Source: Escherichia coli (lineage in GTDB: Bacteria; Pseudomonadota; Gammaproteobacteria; Enterobacterales; Enterobacteriaceae). Taken from it: a stretch of 64,000 nucleotides of DNA. A program made the position numbers and the translations under genes. Below the pieces are notes generated by a model. That model was given only the letters and a program-made list of their open reading frames with translations. It was not told the DNA's origin and did not search any database. The DNA lies in the NCBI RefSeq assembly GCF_016026235.1, contig NZ_CP065613.1; one strand, written 5' to 3'. This document shows positions 1-59,580 of the stretch, piece after piece (the stretch's first letter is position 1; each line of letters opens with the position of its first letter).

Positions 1-229
1 TGGTGTCATCCGCGCCCTGGTCAATCACCTTCAACACGTCGCTTTCGCCAATCACGCTGGCGGTAAGCTGAATACCGCCGGTTCCCCAGCCGTACGGCAT
101 CGGCATCTCACGCCCGCCAAACGGCACCTGATAACCGGGGATCGCCACCGCTTTTAAGATGGCGCGGCGGATCATGCGTTTGGTCTGCTCGTCGAGGTAG
201 GCAAAGTTGTAGCCGCTCAGATTAGCCAT
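1..229 (-). CDS. phnJ: C-P lyase subunit PhnJ, 5' portion only (gene continues past window start)
   Basis: Minus-strand ATG at 229..227; translation begins MANLSGYNFAYLDEQ, matching the PhnJ N-terminus; sits immediately downstream of phnI. Confidence 0.85.
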   Translation of the reverse strand, partial: MANLSGYNFAYLDEQTKRMIRRAILKAVAIPGYQVPFGGREMPMPYGWGTGGIQLTASVIGESDVLKVIDQGADDT

Positions 230-1286
230 GGTTCTGCTCCTGTTGCAGACGTTTGAGTAGCTCCAGTTCGGCCTGGAAATCGACGTAGTGCGGGAGTTTG
301 AGGTGCGAGACAAAGCCTGCGGCTTCGACGTTGTCGGCATGCGCCAGCACGAACTCTTCATCCTGCGCCGGGCCTGTCGCGTGCTCGCCGTACTCCGGAG
401 CCTGCAACGCACGATCGACCAGCGCCATCGCCATCGCTTTGCGCTCGCTCATGCCGAACACCAGCCCGTAGCCGCGCGTGAAGTGCGGCGGCTCACCCGG
501 CAGGTCGATAAAACCGTTGATCATTTCACACTCAGTCATCAGCAATTCGCCGACGTTCACCGCAAATCCCAGCTCTTTCGGCACAATCGACACGTCGATG
601 TAACCACTGCGGATTTCACCCGCGAACGGGTGGTTGCGCCCGTAACCGCGCTGGGTGGAGTAGGCCAGCGCCAGCAAATAGCCTTCGTCGCCGCGCATCA
701 ACTGCTGCAAACGGGAAGAACGTGAGCAGGGGTAAACCGGCGGCGTGCGGGTGATGTCATCCGGCTGTGCGCCGCTATCCTCTTCAAACTTCGCCAGCCC
801 CTGACGCGCCAGCAGGCTGAAAACGTGCGGCGACGGCTGTTGTTCGCTGTCGGCGGTGGTCAGTGTCGGCGCTTCGCCGTTTGCCAGCAGGGTGAAATCG
901 AGCAGGCGATGGGTGTAGTCGTAGGTTGGGCCAAGCAACTGGCCGCCGGGAATGTCTTTATAAACCGCCGAAATACGCCGTTCGAGACGCATCCCGGTGG
1001 TGTCGAGCGGCTCGCTTACCGCAAGCTTCGCCAGCGTGGTGCGGTAGGCGCGCAGCAGGAAAATTGCTTCGACGTTATCGCCGCTGGCCTGTTTTAGCGC
1101 CAGCGCCGCCAGTTCGCGGTCGGCAATGCCGCCTTCGGTCATCACGCGATCCACCGCAAGATTAAGCTGCTGTTCAATCTGGGCGACGCTCAGTTCGGGC
1201 AAATCGGTATCGCCCCGGCGTCGGCTCTCTTGCAGGGCGTGGGCGGCGTCGATCGCCTTCTCGCCCCCTTTCACGGCAACGTACAT
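222..1286 (-). CDS. phnI: C-P lyase subunit PhnI
   Basis: ORF 222..1406; internal start [16 protein letters not shown] gives ~354 aa; operon position between phnH and phnJ. Confidence 0.9.
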   Translation of the reverse strand: MYVAVKGGEKAIDAAHALQESRRRGDTDLPELSVAQIEQQLNLAVDRVMTEGGIADRELAALALKQASGDNVEAIFLLRAYRTTLAKLAVSEPLDTTGMRLERRISAVYKDIPGGQLLGPTYDYTHRLLDFTLLANGEAPTLTTADSEQQPSPHVFSLLARQGLAKFEEDSGAQPDDITRTPPVYPCSRSSRLQQLMRGDEGYLLALAYSTQRGYGRNHPFAGEIRSGYIDVSIVPKELGFAVNVGELLMTECEMINGFIDLPGEPPHFTRGYGLVFGMSERKAMAMALVDRALQAPEYGEHATGPAQDEEFVLAHADNVEAAGFVSHLKLPHYVDFQAELELLKRLQQEQNHG

Positions 1287-1870
1287 CAGCACACCTCCAC
1301 ATGAGTGGTTCGCGGAATAGCCAGCAGGCGCTCGCCGCAGGTCAGGATCAGGTCGATGCCGAGCGGGAACGGGTGCGGGCGCTCGGTGAGTTCGTGCAGA
1401 ATGCACTCCGGCAGCTGCGGGGCGATCATTCGTTCTTCGGCAATACCCGCGCCGGTGAGACGCAGCATGCGCCCGCCGCTCAGGCTGGCGACCTGTAAAA
1501 TCAGCGTTGCACCCGCTTCCGGCGCAACGGCGGTGCCGGTGGAAAGGGCGTTAAGCTGTTCGCTGGAAATCGCCTCATCCGTTACCGCGAAGGTCGCCTG
1601 TTCCGGCTGGCTGACCAGCGGCGCGTTGGTATGAAAACGCAGGCTCTGGCTGACTATATCGTTACTTAATGGGGCAGAAAGCCACACCGGCGTGTCGTTA
1701 TCGGCCAGCGTCAGCAGCACGCTGGTGGTGGCGATATTCAGCGGCTGCCAGCCGCGTTTAAGCTGATGCAGGGCGACAATCACGCCCGGCTCGCTCATGG
1801 CCTTTAACAGGCGACGAAAACTGTGCTGGGCATCCTGCACGGGAAGCATAAAAGCGGTTTCCAGGGTCAT
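1286..1870 (-). CDS. phnH: C-P lyase subunit PhnH
   Basis: 194 aa ORF, overlapping start/stop with neighbours in the phn operon. Confidence 0.9.
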
Positions 1871-2319
1871 GCGTTGTCTCCGCGAACCATCGTAAAGAAG
1901 TCGACCCGGCTGGCGTTCACTTCGGCCTGGCGTGCGGCAATGCGTGCCATACGGTCAGCGTCCAGCGGGGCAATAAGCGTTTCTGATAAGTTTTGAAAGT
2001 GGCGAGATTGCTGCATCAGCGCGTCAATCAGCGCGCAGCGTTCGGCGTGCTGTTTGTCGCGCCCCAGCACCCAGCTGTAGCCGAGCGTGCCGTCAGTCAG
2101 GCGTACGGCGGCGCGGGTGAGCGTGGCGTCGCCGGCAAAAAAGCGTTCGCCGGTGCCGCCCATTCGCGCCTGAATCTGCACCAGGCCGGTTTCGGCGGCG
2201 CGGATCACCTCATAGTCGGCGGTGATGTTCAGCGCGTTCAGGCGGGCTGCCAGTTCTGCCGGTTGGCTGTGTGCCAGTACGGACATCCAGTGCTGGCGGG
2301 TCGCGGTATCTGCGTGCAT
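1867..2319 (-). CDS. phnG: C-P lyase subunit PhnG
   Basis: 150 aa ORF in operon order. Confidence 0.9.
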
Positions 2320-3045
2320 TCAGTGCTCCATAGTGAATTCAATCATGTCGGCGCGCGTCAGGCTGACGGAGTACTCCGCCGGGCTGCTTTCACCGTCACG
2401 GTGGTTAAGGGTGCGCACGCACAGCAGCGGCGACATATTCGGGATTTCAAGACGCTGGCACTCTTTGGCCTGGGCGCGGCGGGCGCTGATCCGTGTCTGG
2501 CTGCGGCGCAGTGCAATCCCGGTTTGCTCGCGCAGAAAATCGTGCAGCGAGCCGCTGTCGAAGCGTTGCAGCGTCGGCCAGAGGGTGAGGTCCGCGAAGT
2601 AGTGGTCGATTAAACAGAGCGCGATGCCGTTGACCCGGCGCAGGGTGCGCAGGTGGATAACGTTCTCGCCCTCCTTGAACCCCAGCGCGTCAGCGACGTG
2701 ACCGGAGGCCGGGCGCAATACTGACAGCAGTTTTTCGCTGGTGGGATGGCTGCCCTGATCCAGCAGGTTCTGGCTAAAACGCGCCTGGGCGTTGAGCGGG
2801 TAATCGAACGGGCGCATCAGCACCAGTACGCCGACGCCCTGACGGCGCTGTACCCAGCCTTTTTCCACCAGTTGGTCGATGGCGCGGCGCAGGGTGTGGC
2901 GATTTACCTCAAAGCGCGCCGCCAGCTGCTGCTCGGCGGGAAGATAGTCGCCGCAGCGGTAGTGTTGACGAAGCTCCTGCTCAAGTTTTGCGGCTATCTC
3001 CTGATAGCGTGTCGGGTAGCTGGTCGGATGTGTAGACAAGTGCAT
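2320..3045 (-). CDS. phnF: GntR-family repressor of the phn operon
   Basis: 244 aa ORF; likely start MHLSTHPTSYPTRYQEI; HTH-GntR-like N-terminus. Confidence 0.88.
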   Translation of the reverse strand: MHLSTHPTSYPTRYQEIAAKLEQELRQHYRCGDYLPAEQQLAARFEVNRHTLRRAIDQLVEKGWVQRRQGVGVLVLMRPFDYPLNAQARFSQNLLDQGSHPTSEKLLSVLRPASGHVADALGFKEGENVIHLRTLRRVNGIALCLIDHYFADLTLWPTLQRFDSGSLHDFLREQTGIALRRSQTRISARRAQAKECQRLEIPNMSPLLCVRTLNHRDGESSPAEYSVSLTRADMIEFTMEH

Positions 3046-3065
3046 AGCTATCAATGCCTCGCTAA

Positions 3066-3845
3066 TCAGATAAAGTGCTTACGCAACCGTTGAGAGAGGA
3101 AATCCAGCAGGCTGACCGTGACGATAATCAGCACCATCAGGGCGCAGGTTTGCTGGAACTGGAAACCGCGAATCGCTTCCCACAGGGTGACGCCGATCCC
3201 GCCTGCACCGACCATGCCGACGACGGTCGCCGAGCGGACGTTGGATTCGAAGCGATAGAGGGAGTAGGAGATCAGCAGCGGCATCACCTGTGGCAGCACG
3301 CCGTAGAGGATCTCTTCCAGCTTGTTAGCACCGGTGGCGCGAATACCTTCCACCGGGCCGGGTTCGATCGCTTCCACCGCTTCAGAAAGCAGCTTGGAGA
3401 GCACGCCGGTGGTGTGGATAAACAGCGCCAGCACGCCAGCGAACGGGCCGAGGCCGACGGCGACCACGAACAGCATGGCGAAGACCATTTCGTTAATGGC
3501 GCGGCAGGCGTCCATCAGGCGGCGAACGGGCTGGTAAACCCACCACGGCACCAGGTTTTCGGCGCTCATCAGGCCGAAGGGGATGGAGAGAACCACCGCC
3601 AGCGCGGTGCCCCAGACGGCGATTTGCAGCGTGACGGCCATTTCGGTGAGGTAATCCTGCCACTGGCTGAAATCGGGCGGGAAGAAGTCGGCGGCGAATG
3701 TCGCCATGTTGCCGCCGTCTTTAATCAGCGTGAGCGGGGCCATTTCCGCGCCCTGCCACGAGACGACCAACACGGCGAGAACAACGGCCCAGCTCAGAAG
3801 CGAGAACCAGCTGCGCTTGGGTGGGGCGATGGTGATGGTTTGCAT
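3066..3845 (-). CDS. phnE: phosphonate ABC transporter permease, uninterrupted reading frame
   Basis: Continuous ORF 3066..3908; probable start [10 protein letters not shown]; hydrophobic membrane protein; no internal stop or frameshift. Confidence 0.85.
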
Positions 3846-3860
3846 GTTTGGCTCCGGTCT

Positions 3861-3947
3861 GTAGGCCGGATAAGGTGCTTGCACCGCATCCGGCATCAAC
3901 GCCTGCACATTGTCGGATGCGACGCCGGGGCGTCTTATCCGACCTAC
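3861..3947. repeat. REP/BIME palindromic repeats in phnE-phnD intergenic region
   Basis: gtaggccggataagg...gcatccggca and gtcggatgcgacgcc...cttatccgacctac motifs. Confidence 0.7.
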
Positions 3948-3950
3948 GAT

Positions 3951-4967
3951 TTACTGCACCGCTTTACTCACCGAACTCATCGCGCTTAACGCGTTGTTCA
4001 GGCGGTCCAGGTCATCCAGCTGCGCCTGAATCTCGGTGGTTTTTGCCAGCTTGTCCTGCTCATTCAGTCCTTTATTGCTTTTCACGCCCTGCATCTCTTT
4101 AAACAGCGCGAGCTGGCGAATCGGCACCAGTTGCAGGTCGCTGGAAGCGCGGAACGGCGCCCAGCCCAGGCGTTCCAGCACCGCTTTTTCTTCCGGCGTT
4201 TTGCCGTAGTTCATAAAGAAGTCGTAGATCTTGTCTTTGGTGGTTTCGGAAAGGTTTTTACGCCAGACGATCGGATCGCCTGGGATCAGCGGCGACTTCC
4301 AGATCACTTTCAGTTCTTTCAACTTCTCCGGCGCGGAGGTTTTCAGCTTGTCGAGGTTTTCGGTGTTGTTAGTGGCAACATCCACCTGCTTGTTGGCGAC
4401 GGCCAGCGCGTTGGTTTCATGCCCGGCGTTGACGGTGCGCTTAAAGTCGCTGGCGGAGATATTGTTTTTGGCGAAGACGTAGTAGCCGGGGACGAGGAAG
4501 CCGGAGGTAGAGTTAGGATCGCCATTGCCGAAGGTGAGATCTTTTCGCTTGGCCAGCAGATCGTTCAGGTTGTTGATCGGGCTATCTTTGTTGACGATCA
4601 ACACGCTCCAGTAACCCGGCGATCCATCCGCCGCGACGGTCTGGGCGAAGACCTGTCCATTGGCGCGATCCACCGCTTCCATCGCCGACAGGTTGCCGTA
4701 CCAGGCGATATCCACTTTGTTGAAGCGCATTCCCTGGATAATGCCCGCGTAGTCCGGGGCAAAGAAGGCGTTGACCTTCACGCCCAGCTTCTTCTCCATA
4801 TCCTGTAAAAACGGCGTCCATTGCGGTTTCAGGTTTTGCTGTGATTCCGTTGAAATAATGCCGAAATTCAGCGCCTTTTCCTGCTCTTCGGCGTGCGCCG
4901 GGCTAAACAGGGTGCTGAGGCTGAACATGCTGGTGAAGGCCAGCGAGGCAATTATCTTAGCGTTCAT
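3951..4967 (-). CDS. phnD: phosphonate ABC transporter periplasmic binding protein
   Basis: 338 aa ORF with signal peptide (MNAKIIASLAFTSMFSLSTLFSPAHA). Confidence 0.92.
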   Translation of the reverse strand: MNAKIIASLAFTSMFSLSTLFSPAHAEEQEKALNFGIISTESQQNLKPQWTPFLQDMEKKLGVKVNAFFAPDYAGIIQGMRFNKVDIAWYGNLSAMEAVDRANGQVFAQTVAADGSPGYWSVLIVNKDSPINNLNDLLAKRKDLTFGNGDPNSTSGFLVPGYYVFAKNNISASDFKRTVNAGHETNALAVANKQVDVATNNTENLDKLKTSAPEKLKELKVIWKSPLIPGDPIVWRKNLSETTKDKIYDFFMNYGKTPEEKAVLERLGWAPFRASSDLQLVPIRQLALFKEMQGVKSNKGLNEQDKLAKTTEIQAQLDDLDRLNNALSAMSSVSKAVQ

Positions 4968-4991
4968 TCGTTTTCCTCAATGATGGGGATG

Positions 4992-5780
4992 TCAGGCAGC
5001 TTTCGCGTTCTCTTCGACGCGGTTAATGCTGCGGTAGAGATGGTCAAAACGATCGTTATCAAACAATTGGCTGCTGCCGTCGTAGAAGACGTGCCCCTGA
5101 CGCAGGGCGACGATGCGCTCGCAGTAGCGCAGGGCGTAATCCACCTGATGCAGCGTGACGACCACGGTGATGCCGTCGTTCTGGTTGATGTCGCGCAGGG
5201 TGTCCATCACGATGCGCGCCGATTCTGGGTCCAGCGAGGCGATCGGTTCGTCGGCGAGAATCACCTTCGCCTGCTGCATCAGCGCGCGGGCAATCGCTAC
5301 ACGCTGCTGCTGGCCGCCGGAGAGGGTGGAAACGCGCTGATGGGCAAAATGCACCATGCCAACGCGGGTTAGCGCCTGTAATGCGCGCTGTTTCTGCTCG
5401 CGGGTGAAGTAGCTAAAACAGGTGCGCCAGAACGGCGTGCTGCCGAGCGCCCCAATCAGCACGTTCTCCAGTACGCTCAGGCGATTCACCAGGTTGAATT
5501 GTTGGAAGATGTAGCCGGTGTTGGCGCGGCTTTTGCGGATATCGCGGGCCAGGCGGCCTTCGCGCTGGACAGTGCGGCCCAGTAGCTCGATATGGCTACC
5601 GGCGGATTTATCGCCGGTAATCAAACCGCTTAAATGACGTAAAAGGGTGGATTTGCCGGAACCGGACGGCCCAAGCAGAGCCACCATTTCACCATGATGG
5701 ATATTCAGATCAACCGCGTGCAGCGCCTGATGCTGATTGAAGGTTTTGCTCAGTTGTTCGACGCGGATAATCGTTTGCAT
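4992..5780 (-). CDS. phnC: phosphonate ABC transporter ATP-binding protein
   Basis: 262 aa; Walker [10 protein letters not shown] and ABC signature LSGGQQQR. Confidence 0.93.
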
Positions 5781-5821
5781 GATGCAGCCTCCCTAAAAAA
5801 GTGGCTCCATCGTGGCGGATT

Positions 5822-5858
5822 ATTGTGACGGTTTGGTTAATGAAAAGTGACTAACAGA
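5822..5858 (-). promoter_or_regulatory. candidate Pho box (PhoB site) upstream of phnC
   Basis: Minus-strand reading CTGTTAGTCAC...CCGTCACAAT resembles direct-repeat Pho box ~40-80 bp upstream of phnC start. Confidence 0.5.
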
Positions 5859-5912
5859 TGAAGAGTTAACGGGAATTCGATGACAGTGCGGGAGGGCGGG
5901 CCTCCCGGCGGA

Positions 5913-6356
5913 TTATTGCGTTGGTTGTTGTTTGACGACATTAATCATCCACGGTACGCCAAATTTATCGGTGACTTTGCCAAAGCCATGCGCCCAGAAA
6001 GTTTCCTGCCAGGCCATTTCGATTTTTCCGTTAGCTGCAAGGTTATCAAACCAGCGTTTTCCTTCTTCGACCTGTTGCGAATCGAGCACCAGCGTAAAGC
6101 CGGAGTAGCTGGCTTTTCCTGACGGCATGGCATCGCTCATCATGATGTCGCTTCCGGCAATGCGCACGTTGGCATGAGCGATTGCGGTATCGGGAAATTG
6201 CATTCCGGAAGGGCAGTTCTCGGCGCTGTCCTGCGCTGATTTTGGCATTTCGCCGAAGCTGATTTTATAGAGCAGTTCAGCGCCCAACGTACGTTGATAA
6301 TAAGCAATTGCGTCGGCACAGTTACCGGCAAAAGAGAGGTAGGGACTTAACGGCAT
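5913..6356 (-). CDS. yjdN: PhnB/YjdN-like protein (glyoxalase-fold)
   Basis: 147 aa ORF; position between phnC and yjdM. Confidence 0.8.
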   Translation of the reverse strand: MPLSPYLSFAGNCADAIAYYQRTLGAELLYKISFGEMPKSAQDSAENCPSGMQFPDTAIAHANVRIAGSDIMMSDAMPSGKASYSGFTLVLDSQQVEEGKRWFDNLAANGKIEMAWQETFWAHGFGKVTDKFGVPWMINVVKQQPTQ

Positions 6357-6418
6357 GATGGTGACCTCAGTTAAGAGAAGCCAGTTAAGTGTAGTTCGAA
6401 ATTTGTACAGATGAGAGG

Positions 6419-6599
<181 letters not shown>

Positions 6600-6613
6600 C
6601 GATCACAATACAA

Positions 6614-6949
6614 TCAGTTCTTTTTCACGAACTCAGATTTCAGTTTCATCGGACCAAAACCGTCGATTTTGCAATCGATGTTATGGTCGCCTTCAACCAG
6701 GCGGATGTTTTTCACTTTGGTGCCAATTTTCAGCATCGAAGAGCTACCTTTCACCTTCAGATCTTTAATGATGGTAACGCTGTCGCCGTCAGCCAGCAGA
6801 TTGCCGTTAGCATCTTTAACGATCAGCTCATCGCTTTCCTGTGCAGGTTCTGCGTCGTTCCATTCGTAGGCACATTCCGGGCAGATGTACATGCCGTTAT
6901 CTTCGTAGGTGTATTCGGAGTTGCATTTTGGGCAGTGTGGTAATGACAT
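6614..6949 (-). CDS. yjdM: PhnA/YjdM zinc-ribbon protein
   Basis: Start [30 protein letters not shown] (two CxxC pairs); 111 aa. Confidence 0.88.
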
Positions 6950-7350
6950 GTGGATTTCCTCAAAAGTCAGCAGGGCAAAAGCGCCAAAAAACGGCAGATT
7001 GCCGAAAAAGGCCGCAATTATACACAAAATCCCTGAGTTTGTCGGGGGTACTGCTGATTTTAGACGACGATCGTTTTCATTTGAAAGGAAACGCAAAAAG
7101 AAAATAATCTTTTTGCCTCCATTTATTATTTAAGATAAGGTTAATGCTCTACTTGTTCTTTTTTTTATTCACATGATATTTTTATCTTTCTGACGTTTTA
7201 AACGTATCGGAAGATGTTATTTATTCTAATAAAAAACAACACTCTAAATATAAAATTATTTCTTGCAGTAATTATAAAAGCCGAAAACAGAACTCAAAAA
7301 CAATCTGGCTAAATAAAAGTAATAAAATTTGCTTTAAGGAAGAATTTTCT

Positions 7351-9579
7351 ATGTACACACAGACCCTGTATGAGTTAAGTCAGGAGGCTGAACGCCTGTT
7401 ACAGCTTTCTCGCCAACAGTTGCAGTTACTGGAAAAAATGCCTCTCTCTGTACCCAGAGACGATGCGCCACAACGGGCTTTACCCTGGAGTCAGCCTAAT
7501 ATCGCCGAACGTCACGCGATGCTGAATAATGAGTTGCGTAAAATTTCCCGACTGGAAATGGTGCTGGCGATTGTCGGTACCATGAAAGCAGGGAAATCAA
7601 CCACCATTAATGCCATTGTTGGTACGGAGGTACTGCCTAATCGCAATCGCCCAATGACTGCGCTGCCGACGCTTATTCGCCATACACCCGGGCAAAAAGA
7701 ACCGGTACTGCATTTTTCACATGTCGCGCCAATCGATTGTTTAATTCAAAAATTACAACAGCGCCTGCGTGATTGCGATATTAAGCATCTGACCGATGTG
7801 CTGGAAATAGATAAAGATATGCGTGCGCTTATGCAGCGGATCGAAAATGGCGTCGCTTTCGAAAAATATTATCTGGGTGCCCAGCCTATTTTTCATTGTC
7901 TGAAAAGTTTGAATGATTTAGTGCGACTGGCGAAGGCGCTGGACGTCGATTTTCCTTTTTCTGCTTACGCCGCCATTGAGCATATTCCCGTGATTGAAGT
8001 GGAGTTTGTCCATCTGGCGGGGCTGGAGAGTTATCCCGGTCAGTTGACGTTACTGGATACCCCCGGGCCAAATGAAGCCGGGCAACCGCATCTGCAAAAA
8101 ATGCTTAACCAGCAGCTGGCTCGCGCCTCGGCGGTACTGGCGGTGCTGGATTATACGCAACTGAAATCGATCTCCGATGAAGAGGTCCGTGAGGCGATTT
8201 TGGCGGTGGGGCAATCGGTGCCGCTGTATGTGCTGGTCAATAAGTTCGATCAACAGGATCGTAACAGTGACGACGCCGACCAGGTGCGGGCACTGATTTC
8301 CGGGACGCTGATGAAAGGCTGTATTACGCCACAGCAGATATTTCCGGTGTCGTCGATGTGGGGCTACCTGGCAAATCGGGCGCGCCATGAGTTAGCCAAC
8401 AACGGTAAGTTACCACCGCCAGAGCAACAACGCTGGGTGGAAGATTTTGCCCATGCCGCGCTCGGCAGGCGCTGGCGTCATGCCGATCTGGCGGACCTCG
8501 AACATATTCGTCATGCTGCCGATCAGTTGTGGGAAGATTCGCTGTTCGCCCAGCCAATTCAGATGTTGCTTCATGCCGCTTACGCTAACGCCTCGTTGTA
8601 TGCTCTGCGATCTGCCGCGCATAAACTGTTGAATTACGCGCAGCAGGCGCGGGAATACCTGGATTTTCGTGCGCACGGGTTAAACGTCGCTTGTGAACAA
8701 TTGCGGCAAAATATCCACCAGATCGAAGAAAGTTTGCAGCTATTGCAACTCAATCAGGCGCAGGTGAGCGGCGAGATTAAACATGAAATCGAGCTGGCCC
8801 TGACCTCCGCCAACCACTTTCTGCGTCAACAGCAAGATGCGCTGAAGGTGCAGTTAGCCGCCTTGTTTCAGGATGATTCGGAGCCGTTAAGCGAGATGCG
8901 TACCCACTGTGAGACACTGTTACAGACGGCGCAGAACACCATCAGTCGCGACTTTACGCTGCGTTTTGCCGAGCTGGAATCCACCCTTTGCCGAGTGTTA
9001 ACCGATGTTATTCGCCCCATTGAGCAACAAGTCAAAATGGAATTGAGCGAGTCAGGGTTTCGTCCTGGGTTTCATTTTCCTGTTTTTCACGGAGTAGTTC
9101 CCCACGTCAACACTCGCCAGCTGTTCAGTGAAGTCATTTCGCGCCAGGAGGCAACGGACGAGCAGAGCACGCGTTTAGGCGTTGTGCGTGAGACTTTTTC
9201 GCGCTGGTTGAATCAGCCCGACTGGGGATGGGGAAATGAGAAATCCCCGACAGAAACGGTTGATTACAGTGTGTTGCAACGAGCATTAAGCGCAGAAGTC
9301 GATCTTTATTGCCAACAAATGGCTAAAGTTCTGGCAGAGCAGGTCGATGAATCTGTTACGGCAGGCATGAATACTTTTTTCGCTGAGTTCGCTTCATGTT
9401 TGACGGAATTACAGACGCGTTTACGCGAAAGCCTGGCTCTGCGTCAACAAAATGAATCGGTGGTCAGGCTGATGCAGCAGCAATTGCAGCAGACTGTGAT
9501 GACTCACGGCTGGATTTACACCGACGCCCAGCTGTTACGCGATGATATTCAAACACTTTTCACGGCAGAACGATATTGA
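7351..9579 (+). CDS. crfC: dynamin-like GTPase (CrfC/YjdA)
   Basis: 742 aa ORF; P-loop GTMKAGKSTTINAIVG; long coiled-coil C-terminal half. Confidence 0.88.
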   Translation: MYTQTLYELSQEAERLLQLSRQQLQLLEKMPLSVPRDDAPQRALPWSQPNIAERHAMLNNELRKISRLEMVLAIVGTMKAGKSTTINAIVGTEVLPNRNRPMTALPTLIRHTPGQKEPVLHFSHVAPIDCLIQKLQQRLRDCDIKHLTDVLEIDKDMRALMQRIENGVAFEKYYLGAQPIFHCLKSLNDLVRLAKALDVDFPFSAYAAIEHIPVIEVEFVHLAGLESYPGQLTLLDTPGPNEAGQPHLQKMLNQQLARASAVLAVLDYTQLKSISDEEVREAILAVGQSVPLYVLVNKFDQQDRNSDDADQVRALISGTLMKGCITPQQIFPVSSMWGYLANRARHELANNGKLPPPEQQRWVEDFAHAALGRRWRHADLADLEHIRHAADQLWEDSLFAQPIQMLLHAAYANASLYALRSAAHKLLNYAQQAREYLDFRAHGLNVACEQLRQNIHQIEESLQLLQLNQAQVSGEIKHEIELALTSANHFLRQQQDALKVQLAALFQDDSEPLSEMRTHCETLLQTAQNTISRDFTLRFAELESTLCRVLTDVIRPIEQQVKMELSESGFRPGFHFPVFHGVVPHVNTRQLFSEVISRQEATDEQSTRLGVVRETFSRWLNQPDWGWGNEKSPTETVDYSVLQRALSAEVDLYCQQMAKVLAEQVDESVTAGMNTFFAEFASCLTELQTRLRESLALRQQNESVVRLMQQQLQQTVMTHGWIYTDAQLLRDDIQTLFTAERY

Positions 9580-10442
9580 CCAAGACGTTACTGGACGGCC
9601 CCGGTCGCGTGCTGGAGTCGGTTTATCCCCGCTTTTTAGTGGATCTGGCGCAGGGCGATGATGCCCGCCTTCCACAAGCCCATCAGCAGCAGTTTCGTGA
9701 ACGACTGATGCAGGAACTTCTTTCGCGTGTGCAGCTTCAGACATGGACGAACGGCGGCATGTTAAATGCGCCGCTTAGCCTGCGACTGACAATGGTGGAA
9801 AAACTGGCGTCGATGCTGGATCCCGGTCATCTGGCGCTGACGCAGATCGCGCAGCATCTGGCGCTGCTGCAAAAAATGGATCACCGCCAGCACTCTGCTT
9901 TCCCGGAGCTCCCCCAGCAAATTGCCGCCTTGTATGAGTGGTTTTCAGCCCGTTGTCGCTGGAAGGAAAAGGCGTTAACGCAACGAGGCCTACTGGTGCA
10001 GGCAGGTGATCAGAGCGAGCAAATTTTTACCCGCTGGCGTGCTGGGGCGTATAACGCCTGGTCGTTGCCTGGGCGCTGTTTTATCGTTCTCGAAGAGTTG
10101 CGCTGGGGTGCATTTGGCGATGCCTGCCGTCTGGGAAGCCCGCAAGCGGTGGTGTTGTTGCTGGGTGATTTGCGCGAGAAAGCGACACAACATCTGGCAG
10201 AGAGTATCAATGCGGCACCGACCACGCGTCACTATTACCATCAGTGGTTTGCCTCTTCGGGAGGGGAGCATGCTGATTTTTTAAGTTGGCTGGGAAAGTG
10301 GTCCATGGCAGATAAACAGCCCGTTTGCTGGTCAGTGACCCAACGCTGGCAAACAGTCGCGCTGGGGATGCCACGACTCTGTTCAGCGCAGCGTTTGGTG
10401 GGGGCAATGGTCGAGGAAATCTTCTCTGTAAATTTGGCGTAA
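9576..10442 (+). CDS. yjcZ: YjcZ, partner protein of CrfC
   Basis: 288 aa ORF overlapping crfC stop by 4 nt (translationally coupled). Confidence 0.8.
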   Translation: MTKTLLDGPGRVLESVYPRFLVDLAQGDDARLPQAHQQQFRERLMQELLSRVQLQTWTNGGMLNAPLSLRLTMVEKLASMLDPGHLALTQIAQHLALLQKMDHRQHSAFPELPQQIAALYEWFSARCRWKEKALTQRGLLVQAGDQSEQIFTRWRAGAYNAWSLPGRCFIVLEELRWGAFGDACRLGSPQAVVLLLGDLREKATQHLAESINAAPTTRHYYHQWFASSGGEHADFLSWLGKWSMADKQPVCWSVTQRWQTVALGMPRLCSAQRLVGAMVEEIFSVNLA

Positions 10443-14154: not shown

Positions 14155-15794
14155 TCACTCACTCTCCTGCAAGTTTGCAGAATATCATCCGCAGCCTGGT
14201 AATACTTCGTCTCAACGCCAGTTAATCCCAATAGCGTGGAGAATAAATTGTCTTGTGAATAGTGTTGCGTTTGCGCCTGTTTTTGCAGGCAGTTCTGGTC
14301 AACCTGATACCGTTTTTGATAATCCTCCGACAGCCACAGCAGCATCGGCACCTGTTTTTGGCTATCTGGGGCGATGGCATAAGGCAGACCGTGCAGATAG
14401 ATGCCATTTTCACCTAACGATTCACCGTGGTCAGAAAGATAAACCAGGCTGGTGGTAAATTTATCCTGATGTTCTTTCAGCAGATTAATCGCTTTATCAA
14501 CAATATAGTCGACGTAAACCAGCGTGTTGTCGTAAGTGTTCACCAGTTGCTCTTTGGTACAGGTCTGGATCTCATTGGTGTCGCAGGTTGGGGTAAATTT
14601 CCTGAACTGCGGCGGATAGCGGTTGTAATAGGTCGGACCGTGGCTGCCGATGGTGTGTAAGACAATCACGCCATCACCCTGCAGGTTATTGATGTACTCT
14701 TCCAGCCCGTGGAACAGCACTTCGTCATAGCATTCGCCGTTGATGCACTGACCAGGCAGATTCAGCGCGGTGACGTTCTGGTGAGGCACGCGGTCGCAGG
14801 CACCTTTACAGCCACCATCGTTGTCATTCCACAGCACGTTGATGCCCGCTCGCTGAATGATATCCAGCACGCCTTCCTGGTGCTGTGCCAGCTCTTCTTT
14901 GTAATGCTCACGCGGCATATCCGAGAACATGCACGGTACTGAAACTGCCGTTGCCGTGCCGCAAGATGCGGTATTAGGGAAATAGACCACGTTATCTTTC
15001 GCCAGCCGCGGGTTAGTTTCACGCGGGTAGCCGTTGAGGGAGAAGTTCTCCGCCCGCGAGGTTTCGCCGACAATCAGGATGGTCAAATTTTTACGTTTTT
15101 CGTTCTGCATTAATGGGTTGCGGTGCGCGTCTTCACCAATTCGCACCAGCGGCAGATTTGCCAGTCGCTGATGGGAGTACCATGACCAGCTGGCAACAAT
15201 GCTGTTAGAGGGGCTTAAGGACTTCACCAGCTCTTTGTTGTTGCGGAACAACGAGGCGTAGTCTTTATAAAACAGTGCGGCGACCAGCAAAATCAGCAGT
15301 ACAGAAACCAGAATATTGGCTCCACGGAAAAGAACACTGCGCAGACGCGAGGTGGCAGGTTTGATTTTAATCCAGCAGGCAATCAGCGCAGCAAGCACGC
15401 CGCTGAATCCCAGCGTTAATAACATTTGCGGTGTCATCAGCGCATAGCTTTCTGCCGGAGTGGTATCAATAATATTGGCAATCATCGAGCGGTCGATGAC
15501 GATGCCGTAAGTCATTATGAAATATTGTGCAGCCGCGCCAACCAGAATAAACAGGCAGGCCAGCGGTCGATTAAGCCATAAGAAAGAGCTTAGTGTCAGG
15601 ACAATATTAATCACGCTGAAGGCGACGACCGGCATCGACAAGAAAACCAGTACGTTATGCAGCGAGTCCAGCGGCAGCGCCTGCAACACCTGTTTAAAAA
15701 AGGCAATATTCAGGCAGATAGAGATATAAAAAGCGGCCAACAATAGCCAGGCGAGTAAATTCAAAGAGGGTCTTTTTAGTAGGCGCTTCAACAT
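14151..15794 (-). CDS. eptA: lipid A phosphoethanolamine transferase EptA/PmrC
   Basis: Start [14 protein letters not shown]; 547 aa; sulfatase-like domain; 4-nt overlap with basR (pmrCAB operon). Confidence 0.9.
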
Positions 15795-17371: not shown

Positions 17372-18133
17372 TCAGGCGACAGTGCGTTCTCTGTGCTGAC
17401 TAACATAATGCAGCGGTGTCATACCGTAGAAGTCTTTAAAGACAGAAATAAAGTACGACGTACTGTTGTAGCCGCAGGACTGTGATACCTGAGAGATATT
17501 TTTACCGTCCATCATTAATTCATTTACGGCATAACGCATGCGGCAGGTGGTGATTATTTGGCTATAACTGGTGTTTTCGCTTTTCAGCTTTTTCTTTAAC
17601 AGACTAGGGCTAAGGCATAAACAACTGGCTACCATACTAAGATTCCAGTCTTTGTGAATATCGCTTTCAATAATTTGATAAACGCTGTCACTTACACAAT
17701 TACGTAACATATACATCATTAATGAAAGGAATTTTTTACTGTCGAGAAAACGGGATAGCACCGTGAATAATAATGCGCGTGTTCGTTCCTTTTCTGACTC
17801 AGTTTCTGCGGGCATCATGCTATGTTGCGCGGCAACGCGAAAGACGTCTGGCGTCAGGCATGGCAGGGTGAGTATGGGCGTAGCGCTACGTTGCCATACT
17901 GGTATTTGCGAGAGATCTTTATTCAGAAACCGGAGGTAATCTTTGATGATGTCGTGACTAATATGAGCAACCAAAGTGTTGTTAAGAGAGGAGACGTCGA
18001 TAATATTATTTTCACAATTTAATAACGCCATATGGTTAGCTTTAAGGCTAATAGGTTCTTTCCCATTCACCCTTATCCAGACATCTTTTTCAGTCAATAA
18101 AACAATACAAGGTTGGTCGCTGCAAATCCTCAT
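17372..18133 (-). CDS. adiY: AraC-family regulator AdiY
   Basis: 253 aa; C-terminal AraC HTH; between adiA and adiC. Confidence 0.9.
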   Translation of the reverse strand: MRICSDQPCIVLLTEKDVWIRVNGKEPISLKANHMALLNCENNIIDVSSLNNTLVAHISHDIIKDYLRFLNKDLSQIPVWQRSATPILTLPCLTPDVFRVAAQHSMMPAETESEKERTRALLFTVLSRFLDSKKFLSLMMYMLRNCVSDSVYQIIESDIHKDWNLSMVASCLCLSPSLLKKKLKSENTSYSQIITTCRMRYAVNELMMDGKNISQVSQSCGYNSTSYFISVFKDFYGMTPLHYVSQHRERTVA

Positions 18134-18312
18134 ACATGTACTCCTGAGTGCGAATAAAAGACCAGTTCTCGCTAAAGCAAAGCGATACCGGGAAATGGTT
18201 ATATAATTGTATGATGAATATAAACATGCATAAAAATAACGAGTTTTACTAATATTACAAATTTTTATAGTAATTTCTCATGTACATATTTTTTTACAGG
18301 ATAAATAACAGG

Positions 18313-18342
18313 CAAAAAAAAGCGCGGGGTGGGGCCGCGCAA
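18313..18342 (-). terminator. intrinsic terminator downstream of adiA
   Basis: aaaaaaaagcgcggggtggggccgcgc: GC hairpin followed by U-run on the minus-strand transcript. Confidence 0.6.
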
Positions 18343-18457
18343 AAAGTATGACATTTTTGTTTGCAGCAATTTTTATGAAAACGTTGCCATACTCAAAAGG
18401 CCTAAGGCCAGGCGGCGTAATGTTATTTAAACAATTACGCCTTCAGCGGAATAGTGG

Positions 18458-20725
18458 TTACGCTTTCACACACATAACGTGGTAAATACCGTCAATAATT
18501 TCAGTCCCTTCAGTTTCGTGTTCAAATCCAGGGAAATGGTGGTCCCAGGATTGCAGCGAGCGTAAATAACTTACTTGCGGACTGTTTTTATCGCCGAAGT
18601 TTTCACCAGACAGCAGCATCGGGATTCCTGGCGGATACGGGATAACTGAGTTTGCCGCGATGCGTCCTGGCAGATTTTCAATGGATACCAGTTCGACATT
18701 GTTGTCGACAATCGCGTTGTACGCTTCACGCGGGGTGATTTCCGCCACCGGCAGGCCGGAATAGGCTTCGTTCAACCGTGCGCCAGGGTTGTTTTCTTTC
18801 AGCCAGGCAAACATGGTGTCACCCAGATCGTGAATCCCCATGTTCGCGTAAGTGTCAGGATATTGTTCAACAAGTTCCGGCATCACCTGCGCCAGCGGTG
18901 TGTTGGCGTCATAGTGGCGTTTGAAGGAGCAAAGGGTGTTAACCAGAGTCCCCCATTTCCCACGGGTTACGCCCATAGAGAACAGGAACATAATTTGGAA
19001 GTCAGTGGTGCGGGTAGGCACAATGCCATGGCGACCAAGCCAGGCAGTGACCAGCGCCGCCGGAACACCGGTTTCTTCCAGTTCACCATCTTCACCCATT
19101 CCCGGAGCAAGGATGCTGACTTTAATCGGGTCGAGCATACTCCAGTTATCCGGAATATCTTTGAAGCCGTGCCAGCTTTCGCCCGGATGCATTACCCAGC
19201 AGTCCTGAACGGTGGTCAGCAGTTTTGTTGGTGCGTCAGCAAAGTCATAGGTTTTGCCGGTTTGTGGGTCGGTGACGACTTCTTTGTTCCACGGTTTGAA
19301 GAACCAGCTACCGTCAGCGGTGAACTCTTTATACAGCCGCGCCATCGCCTGACGAAAATCAACCGCTTCGTCAATCACTTCTTGTGTCAGTGACAGGCCG
19401 CTGTTGCCGTCCATCATCGACACCGCCACGTCGTTGGATGCGCAGATGGCATACAGCGGGGAGGTGGTGGCATGCATCATGTAGGCCTGGTTGAAGCGGG
19501 AGAAGTTAATCGCCCCACGACCTTCACGTACATGAATATAAGAAGCCTGTGAAAGCGCATTCAGCAGTTTGTGGGTGGAGTGGGTGGCGAAAACGGTAGG
19601 ACCGTTGTGATCGCCAGGTTCGCCGCGCATGGCATAGTGATCGGCATAGATCGGGTTGAAACGTGCATAGCCGTACCAGGCTTCGTCAAAGTGCAGACGA
19701 TCGGAGGTTTTTTCCAGCAGATCCTGCGCTTCTTTAGCGTTATAACACACGCCGTCATAGGTGCAGTTGGTCACCACGCAGTAAGACGGTTTTTGCCCGG
19801 CTTTGTCTTTAGTCAGCGGGCTTTCACTGATTTTCTTCTGCAAGGATTCAGGTTGCATTTCCTGCGGATAGATTGGCCCGATAATGCCGTAGCGGTTGCG
19901 GCTTGGCACCATATAGACCGGTTTCGCGCCTGTCAGCATCAAACCTTGTTCGATGGATTTATGGCAGTTACGGTCAACAACCACTACATCGTTATCGGTC
20001 ATGCAAGCCTGCATGATGGTGCGGTTAGAGCCGGAAGTACCGACGACTACCGACCAGGAGCGATCGGCACCAAATACGCGTGCGGCATATTTTTCGCTTT
20101 CGCCAAATGCGCCAGTATGGTCAAGCAAAGAACCGAGGGAAGTTCGTTCGATGCCCATGTCGGTGCGAAACAGATTTTCACCATAGTAGTCATGGTAGAA
20201 ACGTCCGGCGGGTGTTTTGGTAAAACCAACGCCGCCCTGGTGGCCTGGCGCTGCCCAGGAATATTCATGGATGTCACTATATTTCATCAGCGCGCTGAAC
20301 AGTGGCGGCAACAGCTGCTGGCGGTAGCGGGTCATCGCGGCAACGGCGCGTCCGGCGATAAAGTCGGCGGTATCTTCCAGAATCCAGGCGAATTCATCGA
20401 CAAGCTCCAGCAGATCCCGGTCCATTGCGGCGAGGGCTTTTTCCCGATCGCCCAACAGGAAGACCGGCACGTTTTGTTGGCGCTCATGAAGCTTACCGAT
20501 CAATTGTCTGACGTTTTGATGTTCGTCCGGATGTTCCATTTGATAGCTGAACATCAGGCAGTCAATGGCTTCGTTCGAAGAGAGAATGGCAAAACCATCA
20601 TCAAAGGAGGTGGATTTAATCACGGTAACATTTTGCTGGCTTAAAGCATCTGCCAGACGCTCAACGGCGTTACCGACCCAGGTGTCTTGATGGAGAAACT
20701 CGCTTTCAACAATTAATACTTTCAT
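18458..20725 (-). CDS. adiA: biodegradative arginine decarboxylase
   Basis: 755 aa; PLP fold-III decarboxylase, paralogous to CadA in this window (STHKLL lysine motif). Confidence 0.93.
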   Translation of the reverse strand: MKVLIVESEFLHQDTWVGNAVERLADALSQQNVTVIKSTSFDDGFAILSSNEAIDCLMFSYQMEHPDEHQNVRQLIGKLHERQQNVPVFLLGDREKALAAMDRDLLELVDEFAWILEDTADFIAGRAVAAMTRYRQQLLPPLFSALMKYSDIHEYSWAAPGHQGGVGFTKTPAGRFYHDYYGENLFRTDMGIERTSLGSLLDHTGAFGESEKYAARVFGADRSWSVVVGTSGSNRTIMQACMTDNDVVVVDRNCHKSIEQGLMLTGAKPVYMVPSRNRYGIIGPIYPQEMQPESLQKKISESPLTKDKAGQKPSYCVVTNCTYDGVCYNAKEAQDLLEKTSDRLHFDEAWYGYARFNPIYADHYAMRGEPGDHNGPTVFATHSTHKLLNALSQASYIHVREGRGAINFSRFNQAYMMHATTSPLYAICASNDVAVSMMDGNSGLSLTQEVIDEAVDFRQAMARLYKEFTADGSWFFKPWNKEVVTDPQTGKTYDFADAPTKLLTTVQDCWVMHPGESWHGFKDIPDNWSMLDPIKVSILAPGMGEDGELEETGVPAALVTAWLGRHGIVPTRTTDFQIMFLFSMGVTRGKWGTLVNTLCSFKRHYDANTPLAQVMPELVEQYPDTYANMGIHDLGDTMFAWLKENNPGARLNEAYSGLPVAEITPREAYNAIVDNNVELVSIENLPGRIAANSVIPYPPGIPMLLSGENFGDKNSPQVSYLRSLQSWDHHFPGFEHETEGTEIIDGIYHVMCVKA

Positions 20726-20923
20726 CATTGCTTACCCGGTTATGAAGGAATCTTCGTTGCGGGCAAGTATCTTCCGGCCTTTTCGGGCTGTAAAGCGCGT
20801 GAAAAACAAACATTTTTGAAATATTTATTTTTATAAACAATGCGTTATGTGATTATTTTAAATTATTTTCACTGCTTATTATCGACGGCTAAACTATTTT
20901 TTTGGCTGATACTGATATCGTCT

Positions 20924-21832
20924 TTAGCCGGGAAACGTCTGGCGGCGCTGTTGGCTAAGTTTGCGGTATTGTTGCGGCGACATGCCGACATATTTGCCGA
21001 ACGTGCTGTAAAAACGACTACTTGAACGAAAGCCTGCCGTCAGGGCAATATCGAGAATACTTTTATCGGTATCGCTCAGTAACGCGCGAACGTGGTTGAT
21101 GCGCATCGCGGTTATGTACTGTTTCATCGTCAATTGCATGACCCGCTGGAATATCCCCATTGCATAGTTGGCGTTAAGTTTGACGTGCTCAGCCACATCG
21201 TTGATGGTCAGCGCCTGATCATAGTTTTCGGCAATAAAGCCCAGCATCTGGCTAACATAAAATTGCGCATGGCGCGAGACGCTGTTTTTGTGTGTGCGCG
21301 AGGTTTTATTGACCAGAATCGGTTCCCAGCCAGAGAGGCTAAATCGCTTGAGCATCAGGCCAATTTCATCAATGGCGAGCTGGCGAATTTGCTCGTTCGG
21401 ACTGTTCAATTCCTGCTGCCAGCGGCGCACTTCAAACGGGCTAAGTTGCTGTGTCGCCAGTGATTTGATCACCATACCGTGAGTGACGTGGTTAATCAGG
21501 TCTTTATCCAGCGGCCAGGAGAGAAACAGATGCATCGGCAAATTAAAAATCGCCATGCTCTGACAGGTTCCGGTATCTGTTAGTTGGTGCGGTGTACAGG
21601 CCCAGAACAGCGTGATATGTCCCTGATTGATACTCACTTTTTCATTGTTGATCAGGTATTCCACATCGCCATCGAAAGGCACATTCACTTCGACCTGACC
21701 ATGCCAGTGGCTGGTGGGCATGATATGTGGTGCGCGAAACTCAATCTCCATCCGCTGGTATTCCGAATACATCGACAGCGGGCTGCGGGTCTGTTTTTCG
21801 TCGCTGCTGCACATAAACGTATCTGTATTCAT
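20924..21832 (-). CDS. melR: AraC-family melibiose operon activator
   Basis: 302 aa; divergent from melAB. Confidence 0.92.
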   Translation of the reverse strand: MNTDTFMCSSDEKQTRSPLSMYSEYQRMEIEFRAPHIMPTSHWHGQVEVNVPFDGDVEYLINNEKVSINQGHITLFWACTPHQLTDTGTCQSMAIFNLPMHLFLSWPLDKDLINHVTHGMVIKSLATQQLSPFEVRRWQQELNSPNEQIRQLAIDEIGLMLKRFSLSGWEPILVNKTSRTHKNSVSRHAQFYVSQMLGFIAENYDQALTINDVAEHVKLNANYAMGIFQRVMQLTMKQYITAMRINHVRALLSDTDKSILDIALTAGFRSSSRFYSTFGKYVGMSPQQYRKLSQQRRQTFPG

Positions 21833-22114
21833 GGATGGCTCTCTTTCCTGGAATATCAGAATTATGGCAGGAGTGAGGGAGGATGACTGCGAGTGGGAGC
21901 ACGGTTTTCACCCTCTTCCCAGAGAGGCGAGGGGACTGTCCGAGCATCATGAGGCCGAAAACTCTGCTTTTCAGGTAATTTATTCCCATAAACTCAGATT
22001 TACTGCTGCTTCACGCAGGATCTGAGTTTATGGGAATGCTCAACCTGGAAGCCGGAGGTTTTATGCAGATTTGCCTGCCATGATGAAGTTATTCAAGCAA
22101 GCCAGGAGATCTGC

Positions 22115-23470
22115 ATGATGTCTGCACCCAAAATTACATTTATCGGCGCTGGTTCGACGATTTTCGTTAAAAATATTCTTGGTGATGTGTTCCATCGCGA
22201 GGCGCTGAAAACGGCGCATATTGCCCTGATGGACATTGACCCCACCCGCCTGGAAGAGTCGCATATTGTGGTGCGTAAGCTGATGGATTCAGCAGGGGCC
22301 AGCGGCAAAATCACCTGCCACACCCAACAGAAAGAAGCCTTAGAGGATGCCGATTTTGTCGTGGTGGCATTTCAGATTGGCGGTTATGAACCTTGCACGG
22401 TGACTGATTTCGAGGTCTGTAAGCGGCATGGTCTGGAACAAACCATTGCCGATACGTTGGGGCCGGGCGGTATTATGCGCGCGCTACGTACCATTCCGCA
22501 TCTGTGGCAAATTTGCGAGGACATGACGGAAGTCTGCCCCGATGCCACCATGCTCAACTATGTTAACCCAATGGCGATGAATACCTGGGCGATGTATGCC
22601 CGCTATCCGCATATCAAACAGGTCGGGCTGTGCCATTCGGTGCAGGGAACGGCGGAAGAGCTGGCGCGTGACCTCAATATCGACCCGGCTACGCTGCGTT
22701 ACCGTTGCGCAGGTATCAACCATATGGCGTTTTACCTGGAGCTGGAGCGCAAAACCGCCGACGGCAGTTACGTGAATCTCTACCCGGAACTGCTGGCGGC
22801 TTATGACGCAGGGCAGGCACCGAAGCCGAATATTCACGGCAATACTCGCTGCCAGAATATTGTGCGCTATGAAATGTTCAAAAAGCTGGGCTACTTCGTC
22901 ACGGAATCGTCAGAACATTTTGCTGAGTACACACCGTGGTTTATTAAGCCAGGTCGTGAGGATTTGATTGAGCGTTATAAAGTACCGCTGGATGAGTACC
23001 CGAAACGCTGCGTCGAGCAGCTGGCGAACTGGCATAAAGAGCTGGAGGAGTATAAAAACGCCTCCCGGATTGATATTAAACCGTCACGGGAATATGCCAG
23101 CACAATCATGAACGCTATCTGGACTGGCGAGCCGAGTGTGATTTACGGCAACGTCCGTAACGATGGTTTGATTGATAACCTGCCACAAGGATGTTGCGTG
23201 GAAGTAGTCTGTCTGGTTGATGCTAATGGCATTCAGCCGACCAAAGTCGGTACGCTACCTTCGCATCTGGCCGCCCTGATGCAAACCAACATCAACGTAC
23301 AGACGCTGCTGACCGAAGCTATTCTTACGGAAAATCGCGACCGTGTTTACCACGCCGCGATGATGGACCCGCATACTGCCGCCGTGCTGGGCATTGACGA
23401 AATATATGCTCTTGTTGACGACCTGATTGCCGCCCACGGCGACTGGCTGCCAGGCTGGTTGCACCGTTAA
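22115..23470 (+). CDS. melA: alpha-galactosidase (GH4, NAD/Mn-dependent)
   Basis: 451 aa; N-terminal Rossmann motif KITFIGAGS. Confidence 0.93.
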   Translation: MMSAPKITFIGAGSTIFVKNILGDVFHREALKTAHIALMDIDPTRLEESHIVVRKLMDSAGASGKITCHTQQKEALEDADFVVVAFQIGGYEPCTVTDFEVCKRHGLEQTIADTLGPGGIMRALRTIPHLWQICEDMTEVCPDATMLNYVNPMAMNTWAMYARYPHIKQVGLCHSVQGTAEELARDLNIDPATLRYRCAGINHMAFYLELERKTADGSYVNLYPELLAAYDAGQAPKPNIHGNTRCQNIVRYEMFKKLGYFVTESSEHFAEYTPWFIKPGREDLIERYKVPLDEYPKRCVEQLANWHKELEEYKNASRIDIKPSREYASTIMNAIWTGEPSVIYGNVRNDGLIDNLPQGCCVEVVCLVDANGIQPTKVGTLPSHLAALMQTNINVQTLLTEAILTENRDRVYHAAMMDPHTAAVLGIDEIYALVDDLIAAHGDWLPGWLHR

Positions 23471-23572
23471 AACGCGACTAAACGCTACTGCGCCGGGGGA
23501 TTTATTCCGGCGCACACCTCTGACGATACCAATAACAGAAGGCGGGCGTTGGTAACAGCGACCCGATACCCT

Positions 23573-24994
23573 ATGAGCATTTCAATGACTACAAAACTCA
23601 GTTATGGATTTGGAGCGTTCGGGAAGGATTTTGCGATCGGCATTGTGTATATGTACCTCATGTATTACTACACCGATGTCGTTGGGCTGTCTGTGGGTTT
23701 GGTCGGTACTTTGTTTCTGGTGGCGAGGATCTGGGATGCTATTAACGATCCGATTATGGGATGGATTGTAAATGCTACGCGATCGCGATGGGGTAAGTTC
23801 AAACCCTGGATCCTGATCGGTACGTTGGCAAACTCTGTAATCTTATTTCTCCTCTTTAGTGCGCATCTGTTTGAAGGTACTACTCAGATTGTCTTTGTTT
23901 GCGTGACCTACATCCTCTGGGGCATGACTTACACCATTATGGATATTCCCTTCTGGTCGCTGGTTCCAACCATCACGCTCGATAAACGTGAGCGTGAACA
24001 ACTGGTTCCTTATCCGCGTTTTTTTGCCAGTCTGGCGGGCTTTGTTACGGCAGGTGTGACGCTACCATTTGTTAATTATGTCGGCGGTGGCGATCGGGGA
24101 TTTGGCTTTCAGATGTTCACACTGGTACTGATCGCCTTTTTTATTGTTTCAACCATCATCACTCTGCGCAATGTGCATGAAGTCTTTTCGTCAGACAATC
24201 AACCGTCTGCTGAAGGAAGCCATCTGACACTTAAAGCCATCGTTGCGCTTATTTATAAAAACGATCAGCTTTCATGCCTCTTGGGTATGGCTCTTGCTTA
24301 TAATGTAGCCAGCAATATTATTACCGGCTTTGCTATCTATTATTTCTCATATGTTATCGGTGATGCGGATTTGTTCCCCTATTATCTGTCGTATGCGGGA
24401 GCTGCTAACCTGGTGACGTTAGTATTCTTCCCACGCTTAGTTAAATCATTATCCCGACGCATTTTATGGGCCGGAGCATCTATTCTTCCGGTGTTAAGCT
24501 GTGGTGTTCTCCTGTTAATGGCATTAATGAGCTATCACAACGTCGTCCTCATTGTGATTGCGGGTATTTTGCTGAATGTGGGAACGGCGCTTTTCTGGGT
24601 ATTACAGGTCATCATGGTGGCAGATACCGTTGATTACGGTGAATATAAACTGCACGTACGCTGTGAAAGTATCGCTTACTCCGTGCAGACTATGGTGGTG
24701 AAGGGCGGTTCAGCCTTTGCGGCTTTTTTCATTGCGGTTGTGTTAGGGATGATTGGCTATGTACCGAATGTTGAACAGTCTACGCAAGCCCTATTAGGTA
24801 TGCAGTTTATTATGATTGCTCTACCAACTCTGTTTTTCATGGTAACGCTGATTCTCTACTTCCGTTTCTATCGCCTCAATGGTGACACGCTGCGCAGGAT
24901 CCAGATCCATCTGCTGGATAAATATCGCAAAGTACCGCCCGAGCCTGTTCATGCTGATATTCCGGTCGGTGCAGTGAGTGATGTGAAAGCCTGA
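23573..24994 (+). CDS. melB: melibiose:Na+ symporter
   Basis: Start [20 protein letters not shown]; 473 aa. Confidence 0.92.
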
Positions 24995-25017
24995 CGTGGA
25001 CAATAGCTAACGAAAAT

Positions 25018-25114
25018 GGCCTGATGTGTTATGTTTATCAGGCCACGTCTTAATACAATGCTTTGGATTTGCAAATTTTGTAGACCGGATAAGGAATTCA
25101 CGCCGCATCCGGCA
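25018..25114. repeat. REP elements downstream of melB
   Basis: ggcctgatgtg...tatcaggcc and tagaccggataagg...gcatccggca. Confidence 0.65.
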
Positions 25115-25132
25115 TCAACAAAGCGCACGTTG

Positions 25133-25762: not shown

Positions 25763-25884
25763 GGTGAGTTCGCAAGTCAGGGAAAATACTGACTATTCAC
25801 CAGCAAGCGTGAAATTACAATCGCAAAAGAGGTGGCCCAGGGGGATCACCTAGCAGCATGCTGCCAGGCGCTGGGCCGAAGAGG

Positions 25885-27531: not shown

Positions 27532-27608
27532 AGCTTCCAGCCTGTAACTCTGTATTTGTTATTCGAAAATGGCGTGCCGCGTAGTCACGGGCGGCACGCA
27601 AAGTGCAT

Positions 27609-58208: not shown

Positions 58209-58244
58209 GCAATATGATCCTACCCACGTAATATGGACACAGGC

Positions 58245-59407: not shown

Positions 59408-59580
59408 GTGAGTCACCTCTGACTGAGAGTTTACTCACTTAGCCGCGTGTCCACTATTGCTGGGTAAGATCAATAACGGTACGACAGCTGTGTCGTGCCG
59501 TTTGTTTTCTCTGCGATAGTCACAAAGGTAATAGTTGAAATTCCCCTGCCACCTGGCAAAATATCCGTTCAACCATCAGC

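Follow-up and report, generated by a model that had tools for sequence, protein, structure and literature searches.

The phnE gene of this chromosome is an ordinary in-frame 'ON' allele with two copies of an 8-bp repeat. The note that began this work had gone further, regarding the whole phn operon as fully functional and the strain as probably proficient in the use of phosphonates. We think it moderately likely instead that the PhnCDE transporter of the strain works but that cleavage of the C-P bond is crippled by PhnJ C241Y, a change found in a near-identical assembly. The window (the whole 64,000-nucleotide stretch analysed) opens within phnJ. To the right follow phnI, H, G, F, E, D and C, the phn genes all lying on the minus strand, and then yjdN, yjdM, crfC, proP and further genes. 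It contains only 76 of the 281 codons of phnJ (27%). Codon 241 would fall 492-494 nt past position 1, and phnK-P are all outside.

The phnE gene and its repeat tract

phnE (3066..3845, minus strand) encodes the permease of the phosphonate ABC transporter. Translation from the ATG at 3845 gives 259 codons with no internal stop, so the earlier reading of a single uninterrupted ORF is correct. The 259-aa product matches the NCBIfam model TIGR01097 (PhnE) with 311.5 bits against a cutoff of 216.7, residues 16-258 aligning with model positions 8-251 of 252. Since the match is above the cutoff over essentially the whole model, phnE is not a chance ORF. The mechanical ORF reaches an upstream GTG at 3908, 21 codons beyond the ATG, which gives 280 aa; the 780-bp ATG form is the one annotated by RefSeq in other E. 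coli. The GTG is in frame and lies within the spacer between phnD and phnE (3846..3950, minus strand), which is 105 bp long, GC-rich and palindromic, has GGAG 8 nt ahead of the phnE start codon, and is of equal length in K-12 and EC2641. By its sequence the spacer appears to be REP-like. When positions 1-7200 of the window were compared with E. coli genomes the median was 27 places per genome, indicating multi-copy short elements in the phn-yjdM region. These are probably REP-like sequences located in the spacer and in the yjdN-yjdM region (6420-6602), the latter being internally duplicated.

Pairwise alignment of phnE with that of K-12 revealed a single 8-nt gap at gene positions 406-413, together with 15 scattered base substitutions. 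The K-12 tract reads GCTGGCGT GCTGGCGT GCTGGCGc, where the window has GCTGGCGT GCTGGCGc. There are therefore two tandem 8-bp units at 3425..3440 on the minus strand (gene positions 406-421) and three in K-12. The K-12 record is annotated as frameshifted, a 788-bp pseudogene. Having two copies, the window gene lacks the three-copy GCTGGCGT tract of the K-12-type cryptic allele. The extra repeat is thus absent, as had been anticipated, and with seven visible phn genes intact the locus is indeed not K-12-like at phnE. Reversion of K-12 phnE occurs by loss of 5'-GCTGGCGT at positions 407-414 (PMC6469041), and has been put down to slippage between direct repeats (PMC4759930). The 8-nt difference between K-12 and the window is the published K-12 lesion, and it is through slippage in the repeat at 3425..3440 that phnE is turned on or off.

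The number of repeats was surveyed in the complete RefSeq E. coli set using a 96-nt probe taken from K-12, with the triple repeat at its centre. The probe matched 5,335 of 5,426 genomes. A match of at least 95% identity was taken to have no gap and hence three copies, and one of 80-95% to have two. The three-copy class comprises 1,009 genomes (~19% of the 5,335), and the two-copy class 4,328, all listed cases of which span 88 nt in the record. The two-copy state seen in the window is therefore that of ~81% of the matched genomes, in agreement with a published statement that phnE is functional in the majority of E. coli (PMC6469041). The exact PhnE protein of the window is found on at least 1,000 contigs. 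The three-repeat frameshifted gene also occurs outside laboratory strains, in isolates from humans, cattle, wastewater and seawater. An intact phnE is what the wild type usually has at this well-studied locus, and was already known. Because most E. coli share it, it tells us little about this chromosome in particular.

The other phn genes of the window and their promoter

All the remaining full-length phn genes of the window are on the minus strand and intact, as the earlier note had proposed. phnC, D, F, G, H and I have their K-12 lengths, ATG starts and one terminal stop each, and their proteins differ from those of K-12 by 1-8 amino acids. phnC (4992..5780) encodes the 262-aa ATP-binding subunit (NF007438, 601.8 bits against a cutoff of 365), phnD (3951..4967) the 338-aa periplasmic phosphonate-binding protein (TIGR03431, 376.4 against 261.1), and phnF (2320..3045) a GntR-family regulator of 241 aa (NF007486, 516.3 against 363). 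The C-P lyase core subunits PhnG (1867..2319, 150 aa) and PhnH (1286..1870, 194 aa) were assigned from the K-12 comparison and NCBIfam, and PhnI (222..1286, 354 aa) from a precomputed assignment of the identical protein to the Pfam family PF05861. NCBIfam cutoffs are exceeded by PhnC, D, E, F, G and H; no NCBIfam model matched PhnI. The phnJ segment (1..229, minus strand) comprises codons 1-76, which are identical to K-12 (window 229-2), and cysteines 241, 244, 266 and 272 lie past the left window edge.

Between 5780 and 3066 on the minus strand the transporter genes stand in the order phnC-phnD-phnE, and each of their products is above its cutoff. PhnC has 8 residues that differ from K-12, and its Walker A, signature and Walker B motifs are all there. 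With phnC, phnD and phnE all intact, and transcribed from the promoter that precedes phnC, PhnCDE should be able to import phosphonate (and phosphate), and we conclude from these sequences that PhnCDE-mediated uptake is probably intact. phnC is also the most divergent of the phn genes relative to K-12, with 94.8% nucleotide identity and W124Y and G127R among its 8 changes. Its 90%-identity cluster also includes alleles from Citrobacter farmeri and Shigella flexneri, which suggests that it may be an imported or an old divergent allele.

The closest complete RefSeq genome to the window is FDAARGOS_943 (NZ_CP065615.1), with 100.0% identity over window positions 18000-30000 and 99.86% in the phn region. 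Six nonsynonymous differences and one synonymous difference separate phnC-I of the window clone from those of FDAARGOS_943, and the density of differences there is ~5 times that of the flanking 14.5 kb. The PhnI of the window is a rare allele with E237K, found on only 26 contigs in a collection of 15 billion proteins. The lysine is derived, as K-12, EC2641 and FDAARGOS_943 all have glutamate.

The sequence is conserved over the 132 nt that precede phnC. The alignment in this region reveals direct repeats CTGTTAGTCAC TTTTCATTAAC CAAACCGTCAC (5825..5857, minus strand) that resemble a Pho box, and we take these to be a putative PhoB site. A PhoB site upstream of phnC was reportedly described by Makino and colleagues in 1991. 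The tract, which may also be written CTGTTAGTCAC-TTTTAATTAAC-CAAATCGTCAC, departs from K-12 and EC2641 at two bases, window positions 5842 and 5831, and both substitutions are common to FDAARGOS_943. Such changes, or the missense differences in PhnC (8), PhnF (I123F) and PhnI (E237K), might leave the operon poorly expressed or silent despite an intact phnE. The location of the two substitutions in the repeat region is consistent with this, as is the 6:1 excess of nonsynonymous over synonymous differences from FDAARGOS_943 in phnC-I. Yet one of the substitutions converts TTTTAAT to TTTTCAT, which is nearer to the Pho box consensus CTGTCAT, the ATPase motifs of PhnC are intact, and the PhnC and PhnD alleles of the window are present on 111 and 167 contigs respectively. 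We consider a silent operon of this kind very improbable.

Two insertions were seen elsewhere in the window. cadC is interrupted after approximately codon 213 by a ~1.29 kb IS4-family element (41514-42802) that has IS10-like ends (CTGAGGrATCCCCAGAAAA) and a truncated transposase ORF. A cadC remnant remains at 42803-43443 on the minus strand, within a fusion ORF at 41767-43443. The sequence predicts that CadC, the lysine decarboxylase activator, is lost, a type of lesion known from Shigella and EIEC. An IS3 copy (58215-59470) lies between ecnB and sugE relative to K-12, with orfA at 59108-59416 and orfB at 58245-59111, both on the minus strand.

PhnJ C241Y and the cleavage of the C-P bond

An exact-protein look-up with the PhnI of the window led to contig DAEAOC010000028.1 of the public E. 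coli assembly GCA_018228405.1. Over 10,229 shared nt it differs from the window at a single base, a synonymous change in phnF at window position 2977, and the seven proteins PhnC-I are the same in both. Each of the 14 phn ORFs of the assembly has its full length, those of phnJ, K, L, M, N, O and P encoding 281, 252, 226, 378, 185, 144 and 252 aa respectively. However, its PhnJ carries C241Y relative to K-12 (TGC to TAC), with cysteines 244, 266 and 272 remaining. FDAARGOS_943 differs from the clone at three positions in phnJ-P, namely C241Y and two synonymous changes.

The linkage between the PhnI allele of the window and PhnJ-C241Y was assessed from adjacency of accessions and from contig counts. 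The listed GenBank accessions of the two proteins are adjacent, pair by pair (EFK2889179/80, EFK6633594/95, EFK6689213/14 and EHD3362506/07). Exact matches to PhnJ-C241Y are found on 28 contigs and those to the PhnI on 26, with the same longest contig of 5,069,623 bp, and the contig-size distributions match between the two look-ups, including four blocks with contigs >1 Mb. The set of 26 fits inside the set of 28, and not the reverse. From the adjacent accessions, the two counts and the shared longest contig it follows that the PhnI allele and PhnJ-C241Y co-occur in the same assemblies. Codon 241 is outside the window, and given this linkage the genome from which the window derives very probably carries PhnJ C241Y itself. 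A 45-mer containing the TAC at phnJ codon 241 was absent from all 5,426 complete RefSeq E. coli genomes.

Cleavage of the C-P bond requires PhnG-M, of which PhnJ is the catalytic radical-SAM subunit. A radical-SAM enzyme that loses a ligand of its cluster would be expected to become inactive. The 4Fe-4S cluster of PhnJ is bound by Cys241, Cys244 and Cys266, with radical attack by Cys272 (PMC7916636). The putative Fe4S4 site has also been given as cysteines 241, 244, 266 and 272 (PMC9947105), and the four cysteines are described as conserved and as the cluster site (PMC11978286). We examined the conservation of Cys241 by searching 1.84 billion cluster representatives without a profile and aligning 36 matches that reach the C-terminal domain with PhnJ from K-12 and from the near-identical assembly. 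Cys241 is kept in 30 of 30 sequences whose CxxC region is undisrupted, even at identities as low as 40%. Seven other sequences lack it. These are fragments or are locally frameshifted, and six lack Cys244 as well; we discounted these seven 50%-identity cluster representatives as real exceptions because the surrounding motif is disrupted in every one. Among the aligned sequences the isolated replacement of Cys241 occurs only in the PhnJ of the clone. We infer that C241Y would abolish PhnJ activity.

Our preferred reading then takes the following form. The chromosome would belong to a small E. coli clone with PhnJ C241Y, encoded in a gene that is mostly outside the window. The substitution would remove a ligand of the Fe4S4 cluster needed for C-P bond cleavage, and the resulting phenotype would be uptake without C-P lyase catabolism. 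Both the effect of C241Y and the identity of codon 241 in the source genome are steps that we infer. There are two further points against it. The three cysteines that stay (244, 266 and 272) might still hold the cluster, and all 14 ORFs of the clone are intact, with no secondary decay, as would be expected under continued selection or after a very recent mutation. Even so, we hold this reading to be somewhat probable.

Alternatively, the whole of phnCDEFGHIJKLMNOP could be functional and phosphonates used, if PhnJ of the source strain is wild type or if C241Y is tolerated. phnE and phnC-I are intact, and so are the 14 ORFs of the near-identical assembly; ~81% of complete genomes have the two-repeat phnE, and the close relative FDAARGOS_943 has a wild-type PhnJ. 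Against this, the derived PhnI allele of the window is found in the same assemblies as PhnJ-C241Y, and Cys241 is conserved and an assigned cluster ligand. We therefore regard a functional operon as rather unlikely, though with an appreciable chance of being correct. The claims of full function and probable proficiency thus went beyond a window that ends at phnJ codon 76, and for the source strain proficiency in C-P cleavage is, on balance, likely to be false. Growth on phosphonates should not be assumed, given a near-identical genome with a damaging-looking change in PhnJ just outside the window.

If C241Y is inactivating, this would be a natural cryptic phn operon distinct from the K-12 frameshift, and would call for care when the use of phosphonate or glyphosate, or methane production from methylphosphonate, is predicted from genomes. 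The cryptic state would be missed by annotation at the level of ORFs, and unlike the K-12 lesion it would not revert by slippage. The residue that probably decides the phenotype of the clone is a missense change, invisible to inspection of ORFs, and the lesson for the method is that 'all ORFs intact' had been stretched to the half of the operon outside the window. PhnJ-C241Y in a small clone is a modest, testable lead.

Comparison with known phn systems

The phn operon of FDAARGOS_943 has PhnC and PhnD alleles identical to those of the window, but is damaged in other ways. It has an 83-bp deletion in phnE (equivalent to window 3449-3531), annotated as frameshifted (18714-19410), and stop-loss of phnG by TGA to TGC (equivalent to window 1867; 20157-20672). 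Both genes are intact in the window. There is in addition a ~1.5 kb deletion in crfC (equivalent to window 8067-9583; 14492-15208). Among complete RefSeq E. coli, no full-length match to phnE exceeds 98.7%, because the 83-bp deletion lowers the coverage rank of FDAARGOS_943. This low value had raised the possibility of an origin from Shigella or a cryptic Escherichia clade, which we rejected because source databases assign the exact proteins to E. coli and because of the 100.0% identity to FDAARGOS_943 over window positions 18000-30000. In contrast to the C241Y of the near-identical assembly, PhnJ of FDAARGOS_943 is wild type. The lesions in its phn operon are independent of that of the window clone. 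The differences between the two relatives in phnC-I and phnJ-P, though few, fit relaxed selection on phosphonate use in the lineage. There is about an even chance that the clone has silently lost C-P lyase activity by C241Y while keeping 14 ORFs and the importer, in parallel with decay in FDAARGOS_943 under relaxed selection.

The window phnE corresponds to the functional two-repeat gene of E. coli B, most natural E. coli and K-12 phnE+ revertants, having the same 780 bp and 259 aa, the same two GCTGGCGT copies and the same position in phnCDE. Almost every complete E. coli genome matches it at 95-99% nucleotide identity, and we see no functionally relevant difference from the functional gene, the 15 base substitutions relative to K-12 notwithstanding. 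The cryptic K-12 phnE has the gene, locus and slippage-prone repeat tract in common with the window, but has a third repeat and so a frameshift, whereas the window, without the third repeat, has an open frame. Gain of one unit could in principle turn the window allele into the K-12 state; phase variation of phnE was reportedly described by Iqbal and colleagues in 2004 (cited in PMC6469041).

Compared with the C-P lyase core of K-12, PhnG, PhnH and PhnI of the window are full length and 1-3 residues away. The solved E. coli PhnJ chains (4XB6 and 7Z15-7Z19) have cysteine at position 241. PhnJ of the near-identical assembly aligns with the solved chain over residues 1-281, but has tyrosine in place of Cys241 at the Fe4S4 site.
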